A stretch of DNA of 64,000 bases from a bacterium. Lineage in GTDB: Bacteria > CLD3 > SB21. The position numbers were made by a program, and so were the translations under genes. Below are positions 33,543 through 43,121 of the stretch, piece by piece (the stretch's first letter is position 1; every line of letters starts with the position of its first letter). The stretch covers positions 28,372 through 92,371 of the forward strand of contig WBUR01000002.1 in assembly GCA_008933615.1 (NCBI GenBank). The letters run 5' to 3'. The notes under the pieces were generated by a model. It saw nothing but the letters and a program-made list of their open reading frames with translations. It was not told the DNA's origin and searched no databases.

Positions 33543-33968
33543 ATGATGATTTACAACAAAATAGTTAAAACGGGTATAGTTGCAATAACCATAACTGCAC
33601 TAATAGCGGTATATTTTAGTTCCGGTATGAAAATTTTGTGCTCGGCAAATGCGAGCGAAAGTATGACTTGTTGCAAGTCGGCTGACACTTCAAAAAATAG
33701 TTGCGATTCTCAAGGGCCGAATACTTTATCGCTTCAATCCGCACATAAGTGTCCTTGTCCTTCAATGCAAACGGGGCCTAATCAGAGTTTTGACGAAGTA
33801 TTGCCTAATACTGGAAAAGCAGAGTCAAAATCACAATCTGTTCAATGCACTTCTATTTCCACAGAAATTTACACAAGTTCCATCTCTGAATTAGTTTTGA
33901 CCGGTTATGTACATTCTTATTTATCTGCACATGAACGCCTTTCTCTCCTTCAAACCTTCCTTATTTAA
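33543..33968 (+). CDS. Hypothetical membrane-anchored Cys-rich protein immediately upstream of the metal-efflux operon
   Basis: N-terminal TM helix (GIVAITITALIAVYF), then …MTCCKS…NSCDS…HKCPCPS… Weak RBS; could be spurious. Confidence 0.3.
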   Translation: MMIYNKIVKTGIVAITITALIAVYFSSGMKILCSANASESMTCCKSADTSKNSCDSQGPNTLSLQSAHKCPCPSMQTGPNQSFDEVLPNTGKAESKSQSVQCTSISTEIYTSSISELVLTGYVHSYLSAHERLSLLQTFLI

Positions 33969-34099: not shown

Positions 34100-35377
34100 A
34101 TGTTTCATTCTATAAAAACCACGTTGTTTATTCTACTTGTATCACAGACCGTGTGTGCACAAACGCAAGACGGCTTAAGCCTTAATGAGCTTATTCAAGA
34201 AGCATTAGACAACAACCCGCAGTTACATTCTGCACGCCATCAAGCGGACGCCGCTAAAGCGCAAATCAAACAAGTGACCTCACTGGATGCACCGCAAGTT
34301 GGAATAGAGTTTTATCAAACACCGATTCAATCTTTTCCGATCGCGACAAAGAATAGCATGGAAACCGATTATTTTGTTCAGCAGATGTTTCCGTGGCCCG
34401 GAAAGTTATCCGGTATGGGAAAAATTGCAGAAAATAATGTCGCTATGAAAGAACAGGAATCGAAAGCGCTGGATAAGAAAATCATACGGGATCTTAAATC
34501 GGCGTATTATGAACTGTATCTAGTTCAGCGAAAGATGGAGATCAATGGAGAAAATAAACGCATCATGCAAAAGATCATTGATATTGCCCTTAAACAATAC
34601 GAAGTAGGCGCCGGAAATCAATCCGATATTTTGCGTGCGCAAACTGAATTGACAAAATTGACCAATGAAAGTTTTCTGTTGGAGAGGGAAAAAGGAATTA
34701 CGGAGGCTATGATCAATACATTGATCAGCAGACCAGCAAATCAACCTTTGGGGCGAATTGCAGAATTAGAGATTCATGATGTGAAAGTGGGCTTTGACCC
34801 ATTGGTTGCGATAGCCGAAGATAACCGTGCCGAACTAAAAGCTATGGGTTACAATATTGAGATGTTCAAGTCTGAACAAGCACTCGCGAAGCGCGAATTC
34901 TATCCCGACATCATGGTTCGCGGAATGTATAAGAACATGTCCAATACTTCAAAAGACTTTTGGTCGCTGATGATCGGTTTCAATGTTCCGATTGCGTTTT
35001 GGTCTAAAAATAGATACCAGGGTAAAGTCAATGAATTTGGTAAGCATATCAATCATGCAGAGATGGAATATCGGGATACGAAAAACATGATCGGAAATGA
35101 TATTCAGAATGCTTTGGTCATCATGGAGTCGTCGCGTAAGCAAGCGGATGAAATTAAGCGTCATCTTATTCCACAGGCAGAAGCGACATTAGAAGCAACG
35201 CTGGCGTCGTATCAATCGGGTAAAACATCATTCATCATGGCGCTGGACAGTTACCGGATGTTGTTAATGGCTAAACTGGATTATTCGATGAGCGTAATGA
35301 ATACTGCGGTCAGTGAGGCCCAGTTGGAACAGGCCGTTGGCTTGAGTATGAACGAAATTAAGGAGCGACTCAAATAA
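34100..35377 (+). CDS. TolC-family outer-membrane efflux protein (CusC/CzcC-like)
   Basis: Signal peptide. Two-repeat OEP architecture with conserved …YYELYLVQRKMEI… and …GAGNQSDILRAQTEL… segments. Confidence 0.8.
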   Translation: MFHSIKTTLFILLVSQTVCAQTQDGLSLNELIQEALDNNPQLHSARHQADAAKAQIKQVTSLDAPQVGIEFYQTPIQSFPIATKNSMETDYFVQQMFPWPGKLSGMGKIAENNVAMKEQESKALDKKIIRDLKSAYYELYLVQRKMEINGENKRIMQKIIDIALKQYEVGAGNQSDILRAQTELTKLTNESFLLEREKGITEAMINTLISRPANQPLGRIAELEIHDVKVGFDPLVAIAEDNRAELKAMGYNIEMFKSEQALAKREFYPDIMVRGMYKNMSNTSKDFWSLMIGFNVPIAFWSKNRYQGKVNEFGKHINHAEMEYRDTKNMIGNDIQNALVIMESSRKQADEIKRHLIPQAEATLEATLASYQSGKTSFIMALDSYRMLLMAKLDYSMSVMNTAVSEAQLEQAVGLSMNEIKERLK

Positions 35378-35394: not shown

Positions 35395-38300
35395 ATGATA
35401 GAAAAAATTATTGATTGGAGCAGTAAGAATAGACTAATAGTTATATTTGCGTATTTGATTCTGACAGGATATGGTATATATGCTGTTTTCAATATGCCGG
35501 TCGATGCTATACCTGATTTATCGGAAAACCAGGTTATTATTTTTACGGAGTGGATGGGCCGGTCGCCGCAAATTGTGGAGTCCCAGTTAACATTTCCGAT
35601 CGTATCGTCTTTGCAGGGATTGCCGGATGTCAAAGCGGTTAGAGCGGCATCGATGTTCGGCATGTCCTTCGTCTTTGTAATCTTTGAAGACAATACGGAT
35701 ATTTACTTTGCGCGAACGCGTGTGCTTGAGCGGCTAAGCACGGTTCAAACTACGTTGCCGCCCGGGGTGACGCCGTCATTGGGGCCGGATGGGACGGGCG
35801 TGGGCCATGTATTTTGGTACACGGTCGAAGGAGAGGGTTATGATCTGGGAACCCTGCGTGCCGTGCAGGATTGGTATATTCGATATAAACTTGCTGCCGT
35901 TGATGGGGTAGCCGAAGTTGCCGGAATCGGTGGTTTTGTAAAACAATACCAGGTGGATATAAACCCGCTTCAATTACGCGCTTATAACATTTCAATTTCA
36001 GACGTCGTCAATGCGATCCAACGAAGCAATAATGAAGTGGGCGGCAAGATCATTGAGGCGAGCGACGCAGAATATTTTGTAAGAGGGCAGGGCTATATTC
36101 AATCGGTCGACGATATCGGCAATTCGCTTATAAGAACCGCGCCAAACGGAATTCCTGTTTTGATAAAGAACGTTGCAACCGTGCAGGTTGGCGGAGATAT
36201 CCGCAGAGGCTCTCTGGAAAAAGACGGAAAAGGCCAAGTAGTCGGCGGAATTATTGTCATGCGTAACGGAGAAAACGCTAAAGAGGTCATAGATCGTGTG
36301 AAGGAGAAAATTAATGAGATCTCACCGGGTCTGCCGTTCGGAGTTCAAATCGTTCCTTCCTATGACCGCAGCACACTTATTCGGGATGCTATCGGAACGC
36401 TTGAGCGTGCGCTGGTCGAGGCGGCAATCACCGTTTCAATCATGGTGGCCATATTTCTTCTGCACTTCAGGAGCATTTTGCGAATTATTATCGAAATTCC
36501 TGTTTCTGTGTTATTGTCTTTTATCCTCATGCGGATATTTGGAATCACATCGAACATCATGAGTCTTGGCGGTATCATTTTGGCAATTGGGGTCATTGTT
36601 GATGCTTCCATAGTCATGGTGGAAAATGCATATAGGAATATTGCGCATGCGATAGAAGAAAAAGGGCATTTGAGCGCGGAAGATTACAAAACAATTTCAA
36701 TATCATCTGCCAAGCAAGTCGGGCGGGCGATATTCTTTTCCGAACTCATCATTTTAGTGTCATTCCTGCCCGTATTTTTATTAACAGGACAAGAGGGAAA
36801 ACTATTTACGCCATTGGCATTTACAAAAACGTTTGTGATGATCGCTTCTGCCGTAGTAGTTATTACCCTAATCCCGGTCCTCATGACATTGCTTATGAAG
36901 GGAAAATTCAGGCCTGAAAAACAAAATCCTGTCACGGGCTTCTTCATTTGGATATACGAGCCCGTTATTCACTGGGTATTAAAATATCGCAAGACTACCA
37001 TTGCCATCAATGCCATTGCGTTGATTATTACGATACCGATGATCGTGAAAACAGGTTCTGAATTCATGCCGCCATTGGATGAAGGATCCATTTTGTATAT
37101 GCCGGTTACGCTGCCGAATGCCTCAATTACTGAAGTAAATCGTATCTTGCAGTTGCAGGACCAAATTATTCATACTGTACCGGAAGTTCACCATGTTCTC
37201 GGTAAGGCCGGTCGTGCTGAAACGGCTACCGATAACGCCCCGCTAAGCATGATTGAAACGATTATTGTTCTCAAGCCGAAGGAAGAATGGCGAGCGGGAA
37301 TTACAAAGAAAGATATTATCGCTGAACTGGATCAGAAGTTGCAGATTCCGGGTGTCCGTAACGGGTGGACGCAGCCGATCATCAATAGAATTAACATGCT
37401 CTCAACCGGAGTTCGTACGGATATTGGTTTTAAGATATTCGGCGACAATTTGGATACACTCGAATATTACGCAATTAAAGCAGAGCAACTACTCAAGACC
37501 GTGGATGGAGCGGCGGACGTAGTAGCGGAACGCGTTCAAAACGGATATTATCTCGATATTGACCTTAAACGCGAAGCGTTAGCCCGCTATGGCGTCAATA
37601 TAGCCGATATTCAAGACATCATAGAGACGGCCATTGGCGGACAAAATTTAGGTATTGTACTGCAGGAAAGAATGAGATTTCCTATTCGGATGCGATACGA
37701 ACGCGAAATTCGCGATAATATTGAAGAATTGAAAAATCTCATAATACCTGTGAATGTTTCCGGAGGAATGAGCAATACCGGCGGCATGAGTTCAGCAGGC
37801 GTAGCTTCTCAGAGCATGGTAAGTCGAAAAATGGGTAGTTCGCCGGGTATGCAAAATACTAACACGGATAAAACTTATGAAGCATCTTTGACAAACGGGT
37901 TTTCACTCACAACTTCCTCCGGTGATACAAAAGTCTATCTGCCTCTTTCATATTTGGCCGACATAAAGACGTTGACAGGCCCACCCATGATCAATAGCGA
38001 GAACGGTATGCTGCGGTCTATTGTTTTTATGAATACGCGAGGGCGCGATATGGGCAGCGTGATGGAGGACGCTAAAAATGTGATCACTGAAAAATTGGAC
38101 CTTCCGACAGGGTATACCTACACATGGAGCGGACAATACGAACATAAGGTCAGAGCACAAAGAACTTTGACCATCATTATGCCGGTCGTATTCTTACTGA
38201 TATTTTTCATGCTTTACTATACACTGCATGATTACAAAGAAGCGGGCGTCGTCATGTTGTCCGTGCCTTTTGCGCTGATTGGTGGTATGTATATGATTTA

Positions 38301-38745
38301 TTTTTTGGATTACAATTTTTCAGTTGCAGTCTGGGTCGGATTTATTGCTCTGTATGGGATTGCCACACAAACCGGCGTCATCATGGTAGTCTATTTGCAT
38401 GAGGCTTTGGACCGGCGTATTCGTGATCATGAAAAGGGACTGCGGGGCCCTGTCACCGTGAAGGATATTTATGACGCGACAGTGGAAGGTTCGGTCTTGC
38501 GGCTTCGCCCCAAACTCATGACCGTTAGTACAGCCATGATAGGACTCATTCCGGTTATGTGGGCAACCGGGGCCGGATCGGATGTCATGAAACCATTAAC
38601 GGCGCCTATGATCGGCGGGTTGTTTACATCGGCGGTTCATGTGCTGGTCGTTACGCCAATTTTGTTTGTCATTATGAAGGAACTCGCGCTGAAAAAAGGA
38701 AAACTCGAGAAATCTAAAATGGCGGATTGGATGAGAGAAGGATGA
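35395..38745 (+). CDS. cusA: Heavy-metal efflux RND transporter, CusA/CzcA (HME) family, with a Met/Ser/Gly-rich periplasmic insertion
   Basis: The N-terminus aligns closely with E. coli CusA (…PVDAIPDLSENQVIIFTEWMGRSPQIVESQLTFPI…IFEDNTDIYFARTRVLERL…GPDGTGVGHVFWY…). 12-TM RND topology. Insert at about aa 785-845. Confidence 0.9.
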   Translation: MIEKIIDWSSKNRLIVIFAYLILTGYGIYAVFNMPVDAIPDLSENQVIIFTEWMGRSPQIVESQLTFPIVSSLQGLPDVKAVRAASMFGMSFVFVIFEDNTDIYFARTRVLERLSTVQTTLPPGVTPSLGPDGTGVGHVFWYTVEGEGYDLGTLRAVQDWYIRYKLAAVDGVAEVAGIGGFVKQYQVDINPLQLRAYNISISDVVNAIQRSNNEVGGKIIEASDAEYFVRGQGYIQSVDDIGNSLIRTAPNGIPVLIKNVATVQVGGDIRRGSLEKDGKGQVVGGIIVMRNGENAKEVIDRVKEKINEISPGLPFGVQIVPSYDRSTLIRDAIGTLERALVEAAITVSIMVAIFLLHFRSILRIIIEIPVSVLLSFILMRIFGITSNIMSLGGIILAIGVIVDASIVMVENAYRNIAHAIEEKGHLSAEDYKTISISSAKQVGRAIFFSELIILVSFLPVFLLTGQEGKLFTPLAFTKTFVMIASAVVVITLIPVLMTLLMKGKFRPEKQNPVTGFFIWIYEPVIHWVLKYRKTTIAINAIALIITIPMIVKTGSEFMPPLDEGSILYMPVTLPNASITEVNRILQLQDQIIHTVPEVHHVLGKAGRAETATDNAPLSMIETIIVLKPKEEWRAGITKKDIIAELDQKLQIPGVRNGWTQPIINRINMLSTGVRTDIGFKIFGDNLDTLEYYAIKAEQLLKTVDGAADVVAERVQNGYYLDIDLKREALARYGVNIADIQDIIETAIGGQNLGIVLQERMRFPIRMRYEREIRDNIEELKNLIIPVNVSGGMSNTGGMSSAGVASQSMVSRKMGSSPGMQNTNTDKTYEASLTNGFSLTTSSGDTKVYLPLSYLADIKTLTGPPMINSENGMLRSIVFMNTRGRDMGSVMEDAKNVITEKLDLPTGYTYTWSGQYEHKVRAQRTLTIIMPVVFLLIFFMLYYTLHDYKEAGVVMLSVPFALIGGMYMIYFLDYNFSVAVWVGFIALYGIATQTGVIMVVYLHEALDRRIRDHEKGLRGPVTVKDIYDATVEGSVLRLRPKLMTVSTAMIGLIPVMWATGAGSDVMKPLTAPMIGGLFTSAVHVLVVTPILFVIMKELALKKGKLEKSKMADWMREG

Positions 38746-38790: not shown

Positions 38791-40086
38791 ATGAAATATG
38801 TTTTGGTTTTATCAATACTGATAGTGGCGGGGATTGCCGGTTGTTCAAATAAAGAGTCGAGTGGTGATGAAAAAGAGAAAACAAAAGAAATCTATTATTG
38901 TCCGATGCATCCGGAAGTTACTTCAGAAAAGCCCGGGGTATGCCCGATTTGCAATATGGATCTGGTAAAAAAGGTTGATGAGAAAAGGGCGGTAATGGAG
39001 GACATGCCAGGAATGATTAATCTGAGTTTACAAAAACAAGTTCTGGCAAATGTCTCTACGCTCAAAATTCAAAAGGAACATTTTTTAAAGGAACTTGTGT
39101 CCTATAGTTATCTCGATTTTGCAGAGCAAAATAGAAGGCTTATTTCTGCAAGATTTAACGGACGGATTGAAAAGCTGTTTGTCGATAAGACAGGTGACTA
39201 CATAAGCCGAGGACAGCCTTTATTTGAGATTTATAGTCCGGATTTGCTGGAAGCGCAGAACGAATATCTCATTGCACTTGAAAATACAGCCTCGATCCGC
39301 AAAACATCGTTTAATGACGCTGCCAGTACTAACACTTTAATCAAATCTTCACGCAAACGGCTTGAATTATATGGGTTGACGGATGAACAAATTGCGACCC
39401 TCGATTCAAGTCGTGAGTTACAATACACTATGACATATTATTCGCCTATTAGCGGAACGGTTATTGAAAAAAAGATTCAGGAGGGAGCATATGTAAATGA
39501 AGGCACGCTTCTTTATGATATCGCCGATATGTCCACCTTATGGGGTATTGCGGAAATTTATGAAAAAGATTTGTCTTTGATTAAAGTTGGCAACAGGGTC
39601 AAGCTTCGTCTTCCGGCATATCCGGATGAGGCTTTTGAAGGCTCTGTAAATTTTATATATCCTGTGGTCAACTCGCAAACACGCACGGTAAAAGTTCGCT
39701 CTGAATTTTCTAATGTAAATCACAAACTCAGGCCGCAGATGTATGGGGAGATTGTCGTTCAACAAGACATGGGAAAACAACTGCTGATTTCTCAGGATGC
39801 GGTTCTGTTTACAGGAAAACGTCAAATTGTATGGGTGAAAACGGCAGAAGACCATTTTGAGTCCAAGGAAGTGACTTTGGGAATTAAGAATGACGGGAAA
39901 TATCAAGTGTTATCCGGATTAAAAGAAGGCGATGAAGTAGCCGTAACCGGCGGATTTCTCATTGACTCCGAAAGCCAGCTTCGCAGCGGAAAGGCTACGG
40001 GACATCAACATGAAGGCATGAAAATGGACGATGATTCAAAGGATCAAAAAAAGGAAACAAATGAAAGCCCAGAACACAAACACTAG
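38791..40086 (+). CDS. cusB: Membrane-fusion (periplasmic adaptor) protein CusB/CzcB-like with an N-terminal heavy-metal-binding domain
   Basis: Lipobox IAGC. YYCPMHPEV…GVCPICNMDL is an HMBD/YHS-like Cys motif. The HlyD-like body …RLISARFNGRIEKLFVDKTGDYISRGQPLFEIYSPDLLEAQNEYL… follows. His-rich C-terminal tail …HQHEGMKMDD…EHKH. Confidence 0.85.
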   Translation: MKYVLVLSILIVAGIAGCSNKESSGDEKEKTKEIYYCPMHPEVTSEKPGVCPICNMDLVKKVDEKRAVMEDMPGMINLSLQKQVLANVSTLKIQKEHFLKELVSYSYLDFAEQNRRLISARFNGRIEKLFVDKTGDYISRGQPLFEIYSPDLLEAQNEYLIALENTASIRKTSFNDAASTNTLIKSSRKRLELYGLTDEQIATLDSSRELQYTMTYYSPISGTVIEKKIQEGAYVNEGTLLYDIADMSTLWGIAEIYEKDLSLIKVGNRVKLRLPAYPDEAFEGSVNFIYPVVNSQTRTVKVRSEFSNVNHKLRPQMYGEIVVQQDMGKQLLISQDAVLFTGKRQIVWVKTAEDHFESKEVTLGIKNDGKYQVLSGLKEGDEVAVTGGFLIDSESQLRSGKATGHQHEGMKMDDDSKDQKKETNESPEHKH

Positions 40087-40104: not shown

Positions 40105-40476
40105 ATGAAAAGGACCCATAAACATAAAAATTACAACAATCGCATTTTATTGATTTCAGCTATTGGACTTCTTGTCTTTGCAATTGTTTCTTTGCTAAAC
40201 CTTGAGTTGGATGTAAAAGAGAACGTCGGGATATCAACGTCCAAAGCGACATCATCCGATGTTAGGGTAACCAAAATTGCATCGAAATTTATATGCAGTT
40301 GTGGAAGTTGTGGCGGTGAACCACTTGATTTATGTTCATGTGAGCATGCAGTTAAAGTGCGACAATATATCCAAGAGTATTTGTTAAATAATAAAAGCGA
40401 GGATCAGATTGTCGCCTTAATCAGCAAATCATACGGCGGATTGAAACCTCAATTTGAAAAAAACACGATAAAATGA
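40105..40476 (+). CDS. CcmH/NrfF-like domain protein with an expanded Cys cluster, membrane-anchored
   Basis: N-terminal signal anchor. …FICSCGSCGGEPLDLCSCEHAVKVRQYIQEYLLNNKSEDQIVALISKSYGG aligns with E. coli CcmH …LRCPKCQNN…DLRQKVYELMQEGKSKKEIVDYMVARYGNFV. RBS AAGGAGA lies 9 nt upstream and 18 bp after the cusB stop. Confidence 0.55.
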   Translation: MKRTHKHKNYNNRILLISAIGLLVFAIVSLLNLELDVKENVGISTSKATSSDVRVTKIASKFICSCGSCGGEPLDLCSCEHAVKVRQYIQEYLLNNKSEDQIVALISKSYGGLKPQFEKNTIK

Positions 40477-40535: not shown

Positions 40536-41054
40536 ATGCAAAATGTCCATCCTATGTTAATTCACTTTCCAATCGCTTTATTTCTGACAGCGATGATCTT
40601 TGACCTCGTCTCTTTTGCCCGTAGAAATGAATCTTTTGAAAATATGGCTTCTAAACTATTTATTCTCAGCGCTATTGCATTTATAGCGTCCGCTATCACT
40701 GGACTTTTAGCAGAAAACAGTGTGTCGCACAGCGAAGAAGCGCATCACATTATGGAAGACCATAAACTCTTTCAATTGATTGCTACAGGCATTTCTGTTT
40801 TTATTGCTTTACTAATATTTTTTGTCAAAAAAAGAATGCAATTGCTAAGATTAGTATTAACTCTTCTCGGTGCAGGATTCATGACGTACGGCTCGTACCT
40901 GGGTGGCGAACTTGTCTATAGGTTTGGAATTGGAACAAATGTGCAAGTAATAAAACCTGATAGCAATAGACAGAATGAGCAACCCATACAAGAAGTCAAA
41001 AAAGACTCTACAGAAACTGAAGAGCACTCTGATACCCACGAGCACAAACACTAA
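40536..41054 (+). CDS. 4-TM membrane protein, DUF2231-like, with a His-rich C-terminal tail
   Basis: MLIHFPIALFLTAMIFDL… plus three further helices. Tail …TEEHSDTHEHKH. Confidence 0.5.
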   Translation: MQNVHPMLIHFPIALFLTAMIFDLVSFARRNESFENMASKLFILSAIAFIASAITGLLAENSVSHSEEAHHIMEDHKLFQLIATGISVFIALLIFFVKKRMQLLRLVLTLLGAGFMTYGSYLGGELVYRFGIGTNVQVIKPDSNRQNEQPIQEVKKDSTETEEHSDTHEHKH

Positions 41055-41699: not shown

Positions 41700-42287
41700 A
41701 TGAAAACAATGAAAATCTCAACAATGGTACTTCTTGGACTTCTATGGGTCATGAGTTGCAGCAATAACGATGATATGATGCAGGCACTGCGGATTAGCCC
41801 AAAAGATGGCGAAACGGGTGTTGCCTTGAATAAAAACATCGAATTGGATTTTGATACACCTATGGCGCGTTCAGTTGTTCAAAGAAATTTCCACATGATG
41901 ACAACACAAAAAATGCAGACGATTGCAGATTCCATGATGGTTTATATGGTAATGATGGGGATGATGACACACGGCGATTCAGCGACAATTTATGACGGAA
42001 TGATGCGAATGATGGACAACAATACGATGCGCGGAACCTTTGTTTGGAACTCGGATTCGACCCGGTGCACGTTTGATCCTGATTCGCTTATGATGCCCGG
42101 TACACAATACCGAATGCACATGGGCCAAGAAATGATGACGATGACCGGTATGATGCAAGGTGACGGTATGATGTCGGATGACAATCATGGAATGATGGGC
42201 AATGCCGGCGGTATGATGCATGGGGATATGATGATTAATTTTACTACCGGCAACAGTATGATGAAATCAGGCAACCTGAAAAATTAG
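41700..42287 (+). CDS. Extremely methionine-rich lipoprotein: an Ig-like (Big_5-type) domain plus an MM-dipeptide repeat tail
   Basis: Lipobox VMSC. …ISPKDGETGVALNKNIELDFDTPM… resembles a bacterial Ig-like domain. About 40 of 195 residues are Met, mostly as MM pairs (SMMVYMVMMGMMTHG, DGMMRMMDNN, GMMQGDGMMSDDNHGMMGNAGGMMHGDMM). Confidence 0.65.
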   Translation: MKTMKISTMVLLGLLWVMSCSNNDDMMQALRISPKDGETGVALNKNIELDFDTPMARSVVQRNFHMMTTQKMQTIADSMMVYMVMMGMMTHGDSATIYDGMMRMMDNNTMRGTFVWNSDSTRCTFDPDSLMMPGTQYRMHMGQEMMTMTGMMQGDGMMSDDNHGMMGNAGGMMHGDMMINFTTGNSMMKSGNLKN

Positions 42288-42297
42288 GAGTAGAACT

Positions 42298-42660
42298 ATG
42301 TTAGTTCATAATAGAATTTTTATAGCGGCTATATTCAGTCTGATCTTTGCGACCGGATGTACCAGCCCCATGTTGACCATATATAAGGAAAATCCTCTGT
42401 CCAAAGAAGTAATAATCATTGCCGGCAACACTGAAAACATGACCATCGGCAAAACCTACATTGTCTATCGAAACGAAATCCATACCACCTTGCCTTCATC
42501 CGGCGCTCATGCAGGACACGGTGGTCATGATATGGGAGGATCCACCCTTTCAAGAAAGATGGTGGGTCTTATACTTATTACAACAATTTTGGATTCTAAA
42601 ACCGCCTCTGCTCAAGTCGTAAGTGGTGACGTGCAGAATGGAGATATAGCCGAGGAATAG
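42298..42660 (+). CDS. Small His-rich lipoprotein (hypothetical)
   Basis: Lipobox FATGC. Motif SSGAHAGHGGHDMGG. Last gene of the tightly packed operon. Confidence 0.45.
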   Translation: MLVHNRIFIAAIFSLIFATGCTSPMLTIYKENPLSKEVIIIAGNTENMTIGKTYIVYRNEIHTTLPSSGAHAGHGGHDMGGSTLSRKMVGLILITTILDSKTASAQVVSGDVQNGDIAEE

Positions 42661-42767: not shown

Positions 42768-43121
42768 ATGAAAACCAGGATGTCTTTTTCTGTGTTAGTG
42801 ATGTTAATTTTGTGTCTGAATGTCAAAGCTTGGGCACAGGAATCAAAAGAAGCCGAAATTATATCGAAAATAGTTACCATTGATGTTCCTACCATTAAAT
42901 GCGGTTCATGCGTTAAAACCGTATCGAATGCTCTCAAACAATTGAAGGGAGTGGAAGAAGTCACTGTGGATAAAAAATCTAAAACGGCAGTTGTAAAATA
43001 CGATCCATCAAAACTAAAAGTAAATGACTTAGAAACGGCGATTTCAAAATCAGGTTATGACGCCAACGAGGTAAAAAGAGACAAAAAAGCGTTTGACGAA
43101 TTGGACTCATGTTGCCGCTAA
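42768..43121 (+). CDS. Secreted heavy-metal-associated (HMA) domain protein with a non-canonical CxxC motif
   Basis: Signal peptide (…NVKAWAQ). Ferredoxin-like HMA pattern …IVTIDVPTIKCGSCVKTVSNALKQLKGVEEVTVDKKSKTAVVKYD…LETAISKSGYDA…. C-terminus ends …DSCCR. Confidence 0.65.
   Translation: MKTRMSFSVLVMLILCLNVKAWAQESKEAEIISKIVTIDVPTIKCGSCVKTVSNALKQLKGVEEVTVDKKSKTAVVKYDPSKLKVNDLETAISKSGYDANEVKRDKKAFDELDSCCR

Follow-up and report, generated by a model that had tools for sequence, protein, structure and literature searches.

This study examined a gene for a methionine (Met)-rich lipoprotein, located at positions 41700-42287 of a 64,000-nucleotide stretch of bacterial DNA (GenBank assembly GCA_008933615.1, contig WBUR01000002.1, positions 28,372 to 92,371 of the forward strand); this whole stretch is referred to below as the window. 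The gene lies within a tightly packed plus-strand array running from an outer-membrane factor (OEP) gene to an HMA protein gene (Table 1). Besides the OEP, the array encodes a CusB-like adaptor and a CusA-like pump that has its Met cluster, and together these mark a Cus-type HME-RND system. In the window CusA, the columns of M573, M623, and M672, which make up the Cu(I)/Ag(I) site of CusA, are all Met, and the best solved relative is Escherichia coli CusA (948 bits). The original prediction, made from the DNA letters alone, had placed the gene inside a Cus-type operon, and this placement is supported both by these components and by the Cus linkage that recurs in relatives down to ~25% identity.

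The 195-residue protein opens with MKTMKISTMVLLGLLWVMSC, which reads as a signal peptide followed by the lipobox VMSC with Cys20 (MKTMKISTMVLLGLLWVMS-C20). The lipobox of the family is mostly [LVI][AST][GS]C, and Cys20 is invariant in all 50 members of the family alignment, in agreement with the predicted lipoprotein nature. Met accounts for 41 of the 195 residues (21.0%), where about 20%, or some 40 Met, had been estimated, and for 37 of the 176 residues of the mature part (21%). The mean over the 57 open reading frames (ORFs) of at least 150 amino acids (aa) in the window was 2.9%, corresponding to an enrichment of about sevenfold (binomial P ~5e-23); the protein ranked first among these ORFs, and its upstream neighbor ranked second at 10.3%. 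The protein contains 15 MM dipeptides and no MMM, whereas shuffling of the mature sequence gave a mean of 6.3 ± 1.7 MM, and none of 20,000 shuffles gave 15. The Met-rich strings quoted earlier (GMMTHG, DGMMRMMDNN, and GMMQGDGMMSDDNHGMMGNAGGMMHGDMM) were all found; there are five His, and charged residues make up 17% of the protein. MM pairs are present in known Met-rich segments, e.g., those of CueO and hCTR1. The earlier claim that an MM array of this density falls outside the described motif classes was overstated, since MM enrichment is a trait of the whole family and the periplasmic protein MrpX also contains 20% Met (PMC4436054).

The 41700-42287 reading frame is a genuine, conserved gene under strong purifying selection. 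A word-indexed search retrieved 14 homologs; each is a lipoprotein of 185-197 aa, and identity is 66-99% for 11 of them and ~40% for three (37-99% overall). Full-length orthologs reach down to ~25% identity. Codon alignments of the window gene with six orthologous DNA loci, five of them informative, gave ratios of nonsynonymous to synonymous substitution rates (dN/dS) of 0.087-0.17, with third-position changes dominating; locus L004 differs by one substitution only and yields no ratio. Two more comparisons between homologs gave 0.09 and 0.13. Among seven close relatives, 26 of the 41 Met columns were fully conserved, compared with 66 of 154 for other residues. On the minus strand, the longest antisense open stretch ranges from 60 to 137 aa among homologs and is interrupted in L003 and L005. 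Since the sense dN/dS is low and the antisense stretch is broken in these two loci, the earlier view that the antisense His-rich ORF is an artefact of CAT/ATG complementarity is supported. A DNA tandem-repeat scan found a weak 18-nucleotide (nt) period at 42132-42182 (71% match), and recent repeat expansion was therefore rejected as the origin of the Met array. A promoter and terminator scan of 33-45 kb performed no better than shuffles.

The sole Pfam match of the protein was Big_5 (PF13205), an immunoglobulin (Ig)-like domain, with aa 29-75 aligned to profile positions 7-54 of 105 (4.4e-8, 34.2 bits against a cutoff of 23.6). When aa 69-108 and 143-174 were excised in silico, the match grew to positions 7-86 and the score rose from 34.2 to 40.0 bits; this longer and higher match argues for a split Ig domain rather than an 80-aa domain followed by a Met tail. 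Two AlphaFold2 (AF2) runs gave the same topology, and the run with the 50-sequence alignment reached a mean predicted local distance difference test (pLDDT) score of 83.8 (81-84 across five models) and a predicted template modeling score of 0.74. The pLDDT was at least 70 for 151 of the 195 residues and fell below 50 only at aa 155-169, the loop bearing the GMM repeats, which is predicted to be disordered. The predicted strands (aa 30-33, 38-41, 47-51, 64-68, 112-116, 122-127, 136-141, and 177-183) form a single Ig sandwich, with a helical hairpin between two of its strands and a further short helix at aa 143-149. The Met share was 31.9% in the two insertions versus 12.8% in the Ig core. According to these models, the protein is one split Big_5/CopC-like Ig sandwich (aa 29-183) carrying two Met-rich insertions. 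Therefore, the Ig-like domain that had been predicted was recovered, but not as an N-terminal block of ~80 aa succeeded by a Met array. A Foldseek comparison of the model likewise returned generic Ig folds, and sequence searches of the PDB with the protein or the family profile gave nothing significant.

Table 1. Features of the Met-rich lipoprotein gene and of the surrounding Cus-type gene array (window coordinates).
Feature	Coordinates	Strand	Evidence
Met-rich lipoprotein gene, 195 aa, 41 Met, 15 MM	41700..42287	+	ORF list, composition, homologs, dN/dS
Signal peptide and lipobox (VMSC, Cys20)	41700..41759	+	Sequence reading; Cys20 in 50/50 family members
First half of Big_5 Ig-like sandwich, aa 29-68, four strands and short helix, conserved F64-H65	41784..41903	+	Pfam; AF2 pLDDT >90
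Met-rich helical hairpin inserted in Ig domain, aa 69-108, helices 69-86 and 91-108, 14 Met	41904..42023	+	Both AF2 runs, block pLDDT 85-97; Big_5 match lengthens on excision; conserved Met/His columns
Second half of Ig sandwich, aa 112-141, GTFVWNSDSTRCTFDPDSLMMPGTQYRMHM, invariant G112 and W116 (50/50), C123 in 49/50	42033..42122	+	Alignment, AF2, excision; profile positions 108-143 aligned in giant multi-Big_5 proteins
Met-rich helix aa 143-149 and flexible loop aa 150-174 (GMMQGD GMMSDDNH GMMGNAG GMMH)	42126..42221	+	pLDDT <50 at aa 155-169; weak 18-nt period
Last beta-strand, aa 177-183 (MMINFTT), closing the Ig sandwich	42228..42248	+	Strand in both AF2 runs; F181 and T183 in ≥90% of members
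Antisense His-rich ORF, 80 aa, 20 His	41979..42221	-	Artefact, not a gene: CAT complements ATG
Outer-membrane factor OEP, CusC-like	34100..35377	+	Pfam OEP 1e-43
CusA-type HME-RND pump, three-Met site kept	35395..38745	+	E. coli CusA 948 bits vs ZneA 547
CusB-type adaptor, N-terminal HMBD	38791..40086	+	Pfam HlyD_D23 1.7e-72, HMBD 1.2e-13
CcmH-like protein	40105..40476	+	Motif CSCGSCGG...CSCEH
DUF2231 protein	40536..41054	+	Operon table
YtkA-like (weak) lipoprotein, 10% Met, C-terminal transmembrane helix	41082..41666	+	Pfam YtkA 21.1 bits, below 25.9 cutoff
120-aa lipoprotein, His-rich loop (HAGHGGHDMGG)	42298..42660	+	No Pfam or NCBIfam match
Secreted HMA (CopZ/MerP-like) protein, CGSC motif	42768..43121	+	Pfam HMA 1e-17; NCBIfam MerP, CopZ below cutoffs

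A family profile was run by HMMER against 1.84 billion representative proteins and gave 1,508 matches. Among the best 150 of these, roughly 50 or more are 145-210 aa long and aligned end to end, and the other matches are giant multi-Big_5 proteins aligned over the two Ig halves alone. The conservation percentages given here are based on a 50-member family alignment (A2), in which Pfam detected Big_5 alone in every member. The homology search suggested in the original prediction thus recovered the Big_5 domain in Pfam and an unnamed family of relatives, but the MM enrichment was not special to the window protein: outside its clade, 183 MM adjacencies were observed family-wide against 99 expected.

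The Met content of the 50 members ranges from 6.2% to 21%, with the window protein at the maximum, and the window clade roughly doubled the Met content of the family. Several family-conserved residues are kept in the window protein, namely M72 (66%), M86 (60%), M101 (86%), M145 (78%), M165/166 (56% and 68%), M177/178 (about 50%), H65 (70%), and H140 (74%). Other family residues were exchanged: His 88 became Met, His 103 became Arg, and His 108 and 180 became Asn in the window clade, and the window protein has Met in place of the second family Cys (position 80, present in 27 of the 50 members). Tandem two-domain members were also found (P0038, P0042, P0048, and P0081). In a distant clade, the loop equivalent to the GMM-repeat loop of the window protein carries MDCDC or MDCPCC, and a different soft-metal ligand set (CxC) thus occupies the same structural position. 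In loci of this CxC/CPCC clade (L025:8906-10588, L028:8867-10603, and L029:9124-10603), the family gene is preceded by a gene for a 126-131-aa CxxCH (heme c-type) protein and one for a ~200-aa Cys-rich protein; L025, unlike L028 and L029, adjoins an HMA-CusA-OEP-P-type ATPase-CusB cluster.

Database names of the members are "Ig-like domain-containing protein" or "hypothetical". A second profile search, in a 5.8-billion-protein index, returned 22 proteins, none with a functional name; Pfam and NCBIfam hold no family dedicated to this lipoprotein, NCBIfam has no model for its small neighbors either, and our literature searches found no paper on the family. For P0007, the JGI annotation "NlpE involved in copper resistance" was rejected as unsupported, with no NlpE profile match in the Pfam/NCBIfam scans. 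Copper operons are already known to encode Met-rich periplasmic proteins that handle copper; the novelty lies in the scaffold and in the density of Met.

Related loci were drawn from genome, metagenome, and assembly collections. The 29 loci fetched correspond to about 20 independent family-gene sites, nine being duplicates, near-duplicates, or second paralogs (L002, L026, and L027 among them), and their hosts are metagenome-assembled genomes (MAGs) labeled "bacterium", "Bacteroidota", or "Ignavibacteriae". CusA or CusB adjoins the family gene in 14 of the 29 loci (L001, L003-L006, L009-L011, L013, L014, L018, L019, L021, and L025). The remaining loci are mostly short fragments, of which L012 and L020, for example, retain the YtkA-like and CcmH-like partners. 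The YtkA-like partner is syntenic in L003-L006, L009-L013, and L020, and the 120-aa lipoprotein partner in L003-L005, L007, L008, L010, and L011. Multiple copies of the family gene were also observed. MAG-301 (JAEUSK01) carries three copies on separate contigs (L004, L006, and L007, with 99%, 81%, and 84% identity), and two adjacent divergent paralogs occur in each of L007 (861-1442 and 1500-2075) and L008 (1-501 and 629-1084); these copies and pairs could reflect true paralogy or strain mixture in the bin. In the distant Cus operon of L001, the family gene is directly preceded by a gene (L001:9236-9976) whose product, a secreted protein of 246 aa, contains MDHGMMxDSxDTSKxEHMMK as a threefold repeat. 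Operons of this type can therefore hold another MM-dipeptide protein, unrelated to the first.

CusF was not detected in the operon by Pfam, no H-x-W-x-M-x-M motif occurred in any frame of the window, and tblastn with an approximate CusF query gave only E > 1. In E. coli, CusB gets its metal from CusF via a Met-based N-terminus. As the N-terminal HMBD of the window CusB contains Cys (YYCPMHPEV...CPICNMDL), the metal entry route to this pump may differ from that in E. coli. Other features of the neighboring genes were also recorded. The YtkA-like neighbor has the mature N-terminus CMMMAMGGMTHDSHSD, its YtkA-like match being to an Ig domain, and it accompanies the Met-rich gene in many loci. The 120-aa lipoprotein, whose His-rich loop reads SSGAHAGHGGHDMGG, is conserved in several loci as the next gene downstream of the Met-rich one. 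In the window CusA, a Gly-, Ser-, and Met-rich insertion of ~62 aa (aa 785-846; 37747-37932, plus strand; GGMSNTGGMSSAGVASQSMVSRKMGSSPGM...) interrupts the alignment with E. coli CusA (query 784 to 847). The CcmH-like gene is present, often twofold, in L005, L010, L011, and L013. Just upstream of the OEP gene, 33543-33968 (plus strand) encodes a small membrane-anchored Cys-containing protein (CCKSAD..C..CPCPS), 74% conserved in L003, with no family match.

Judging from the operon context and the chemistry of Met, we consider it probable that the protein is a lipid-anchored, multi-site thioether buffer or chaperone for Cu(I)/Ag(I) that serves CusCBA. Its Met thioethers would ligate several Cu(I)/Ag(I) ions, probably at dynamic Met3-type sites. 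Met-rich domains of this kind have been described as dynamic multi-site Cu(I) "sponges", as in the CueO domain and model tripods (PMC11494321, PMC11840665). The tethered protein may capture and buffer periplasmic Cu(I)/Ag(I) and then hand the metal on, the candidate recipients being CusB or CusA directly, or the YtkA-like, 120-aa, and HMA partners; it may thereby fill the niche held by CusF in E. coli. The loss of His and Cys in the window clade, some to Met and some to non-ligand residues, would favor a ligation selective for Cu(I)/Ag(I) and unaffected by pH or thiol oxidation.

Comparison with known systems places the proposed function in context. Like CusF, the protein is a small envelope protein encoded in a cusCBA operon, with putative Met-based soft-metal ligation and a presumed feeding of CusB and CusA. 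However, CusF is soluble, with an oligonucleotide/oligosaccharide-binding fold and one Met2His(Trp) site, whereas the window protein is an Ig-fold lipoprotein with ~37 mature Met that has neither the CusF profile (PF11604) nor that fold nor the H-x-W-x-M-x-M site. The protein shares a CopC-type beta-sandwich, but the CopC profile (PF04234) gave no match at E ≤ 0.1 for the window protein and none at E ≤ 0.01 in the 50 members. The N-terminal His Cu(II) site of CopC/PcoC is absent, as the mature N-terminus is the acylated Cys20 followed by S-N-N-D-D, and the Met element of CopC/PcoC is a short loop, compared with a helical hairpin of 40 aa plus a repeat loop here. The Met-rich domain of CueO, a proposed transient Cu(I) recruiter, is similarly dense in Met with some His/Asp and is part helical and part flexible (PMC11494321, PMC11840665); in contrast, that domain is appended to an oxidase active site, whereas the window protein is a free-standing Ig-fold lipoprotein without an oxidase. 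SilE and PcoE, which are encoded alongside Sil or Pco/Cus systems, bind Ag(I)/Cu(I) at multiple sites in the periplasm (PMC5008109), and such binding is putative in the window protein. SilE-type sponges are disordered, soluble, non-lipidated, and rich in both His and Met, which differs from a mostly folded (mean pLDDT 83.8) lipoprotein with five His.

Several of our data weigh against the buffer or chaperone interpretation. The Met residues of the helices were not significantly one-sided in a helical-wheel test (P ~0.11), and the Met gains at positions 66-67 take over from Leu or Ile in core strands and may not be ligand design. The anticorrelation of Met and His without the window clade was weak (rho -0.26, p 0.08), and a family-wide His-to-Met swap was rejected as a trend. 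Further, Cus genes are lacking within 10 kb of the two distant members L028 and L029.

These points need to be considered together with other explanations of the Met content. The protein might be a sacrificial antioxidant, a reservoir whose Met are oxidized to Met-sulfoxide through reactive species of oxygen or chlorine arising from copper stress, sparing other envelope proteins. MrpX of Azospira suillum, which is periplasmic with ~20% Met against 21% in the window protein, scavenges hypochlorite (PMC4436054), and CusF Met are reported to be oxidized in copper stress and repaired by MsrPQ (PMC9302797); some of the Met gains at non-ligand core positions would also fit such a role. However, MrpX is small, 44% charged, and co-transcribed with yedYZ, whereas the window protein is 17% charged, carries Big_5, is predicted to be folded, and lies in a Cus operon, with no Msr or YedY-type gene seen among the operon ORFs or in a crude window-wide motif scan. 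The His/Cys columns of the family and its CxC clade point to metal ligands rather than oxidant sinks, and the synteny with Cus genes is consistent; we therefore regard this role as quite unlikely. Another reading retains the same metal chemistry but places it outside the cell, with the lipoprotein flipped outward by Bacteroidota lipoprotein export to sequester Cu(I)/Ag(I) there instead of feeding the pump. The hosts are Bacteroidota or Ignavibacteriae, and the mature N-terminus C-S-N-N-D-D, with an acidic pair after a polar residue, resembles the export signal C-X-K-(D/E)2-X (PMC5080379); the N-D-D triplet is found in nine of the 11 closest homologs. The acidic pair, however, lies at +5/+6, one position past the optimum, and the experimental study found the placement of the pair to be critical (PMC5080379). 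The Lys of the signal is missing, distant members lack the motif, and the operon partners CusB, the YtkA-like protein, and the HMA protein are periplasmic. We judge such a surface-exposed trap to be of low probability.

It could also be asked whether metal is involved at all, as the protein might serve the pump or envelope as a structural Ig-like adaptor in which Met is a compositional quirk, used as a flexible hydrophobic residue. Big_5 is a generic Ig-like module of adhesins and L,D-transpeptidases, and several of the Met stand for Leu, Ile, or Val. Against this, the roughly sevenfold enrichment is concentrated in the insertions, the MM adjacency is non-random, the Met columns are better conserved than others, and the operon partner genes are likewise rich in Met, His, or Cys, making a purely structural role very unlikely. 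Lastly, the plus strand might hold no gene, the product being the antisense His-rich ORF or neither strand coding. An 80-aa minus-strand ORF of this kind does exist, but the sense dN/dS (0.09-0.17), the lipobox, the Big_5 match, the orthologs, and the broken antisense frames effectively refute this reading.

A more specific and rather doubtful possibility may also be raised: the family could be a folded all-thioether module not recognized before, in which a Met-lined hairpin on the Ig sandwich builds a defined cluster, multinuclear in Cu(I)/Ag(I) and bound by Met, or a relay "wire", instead of forming a disordered sponge. In FCB-group bacteria, HMBD-type CusB might depend on such a module, in place of CusF, as its obligatory donor; alternatively, the module might be displayed at the surface.

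Periplasmic Cu(I)/Ag(I) handling is known mainly from Proteobacteria, through CusF, CopC, PcoE/SilE, and CueO. The Cus operons of Bacteroidota and Ignavibacteriae carry a different, conserved accessory set, the most striking member of which is a folded Ig lipoprotein with up to 21% Met. If the metal is bound as proposed, the protein would be a candidate CusF replacement and a natural scaffold on which to study thioether-only coordination of Cu(I)/Ag(I) at high density. It would also provide a useful annotation marker for copper/silver resistance in uncultured FCB bacteria, in which such proteins are now labeled only as "Ig-like domain-containing protein".

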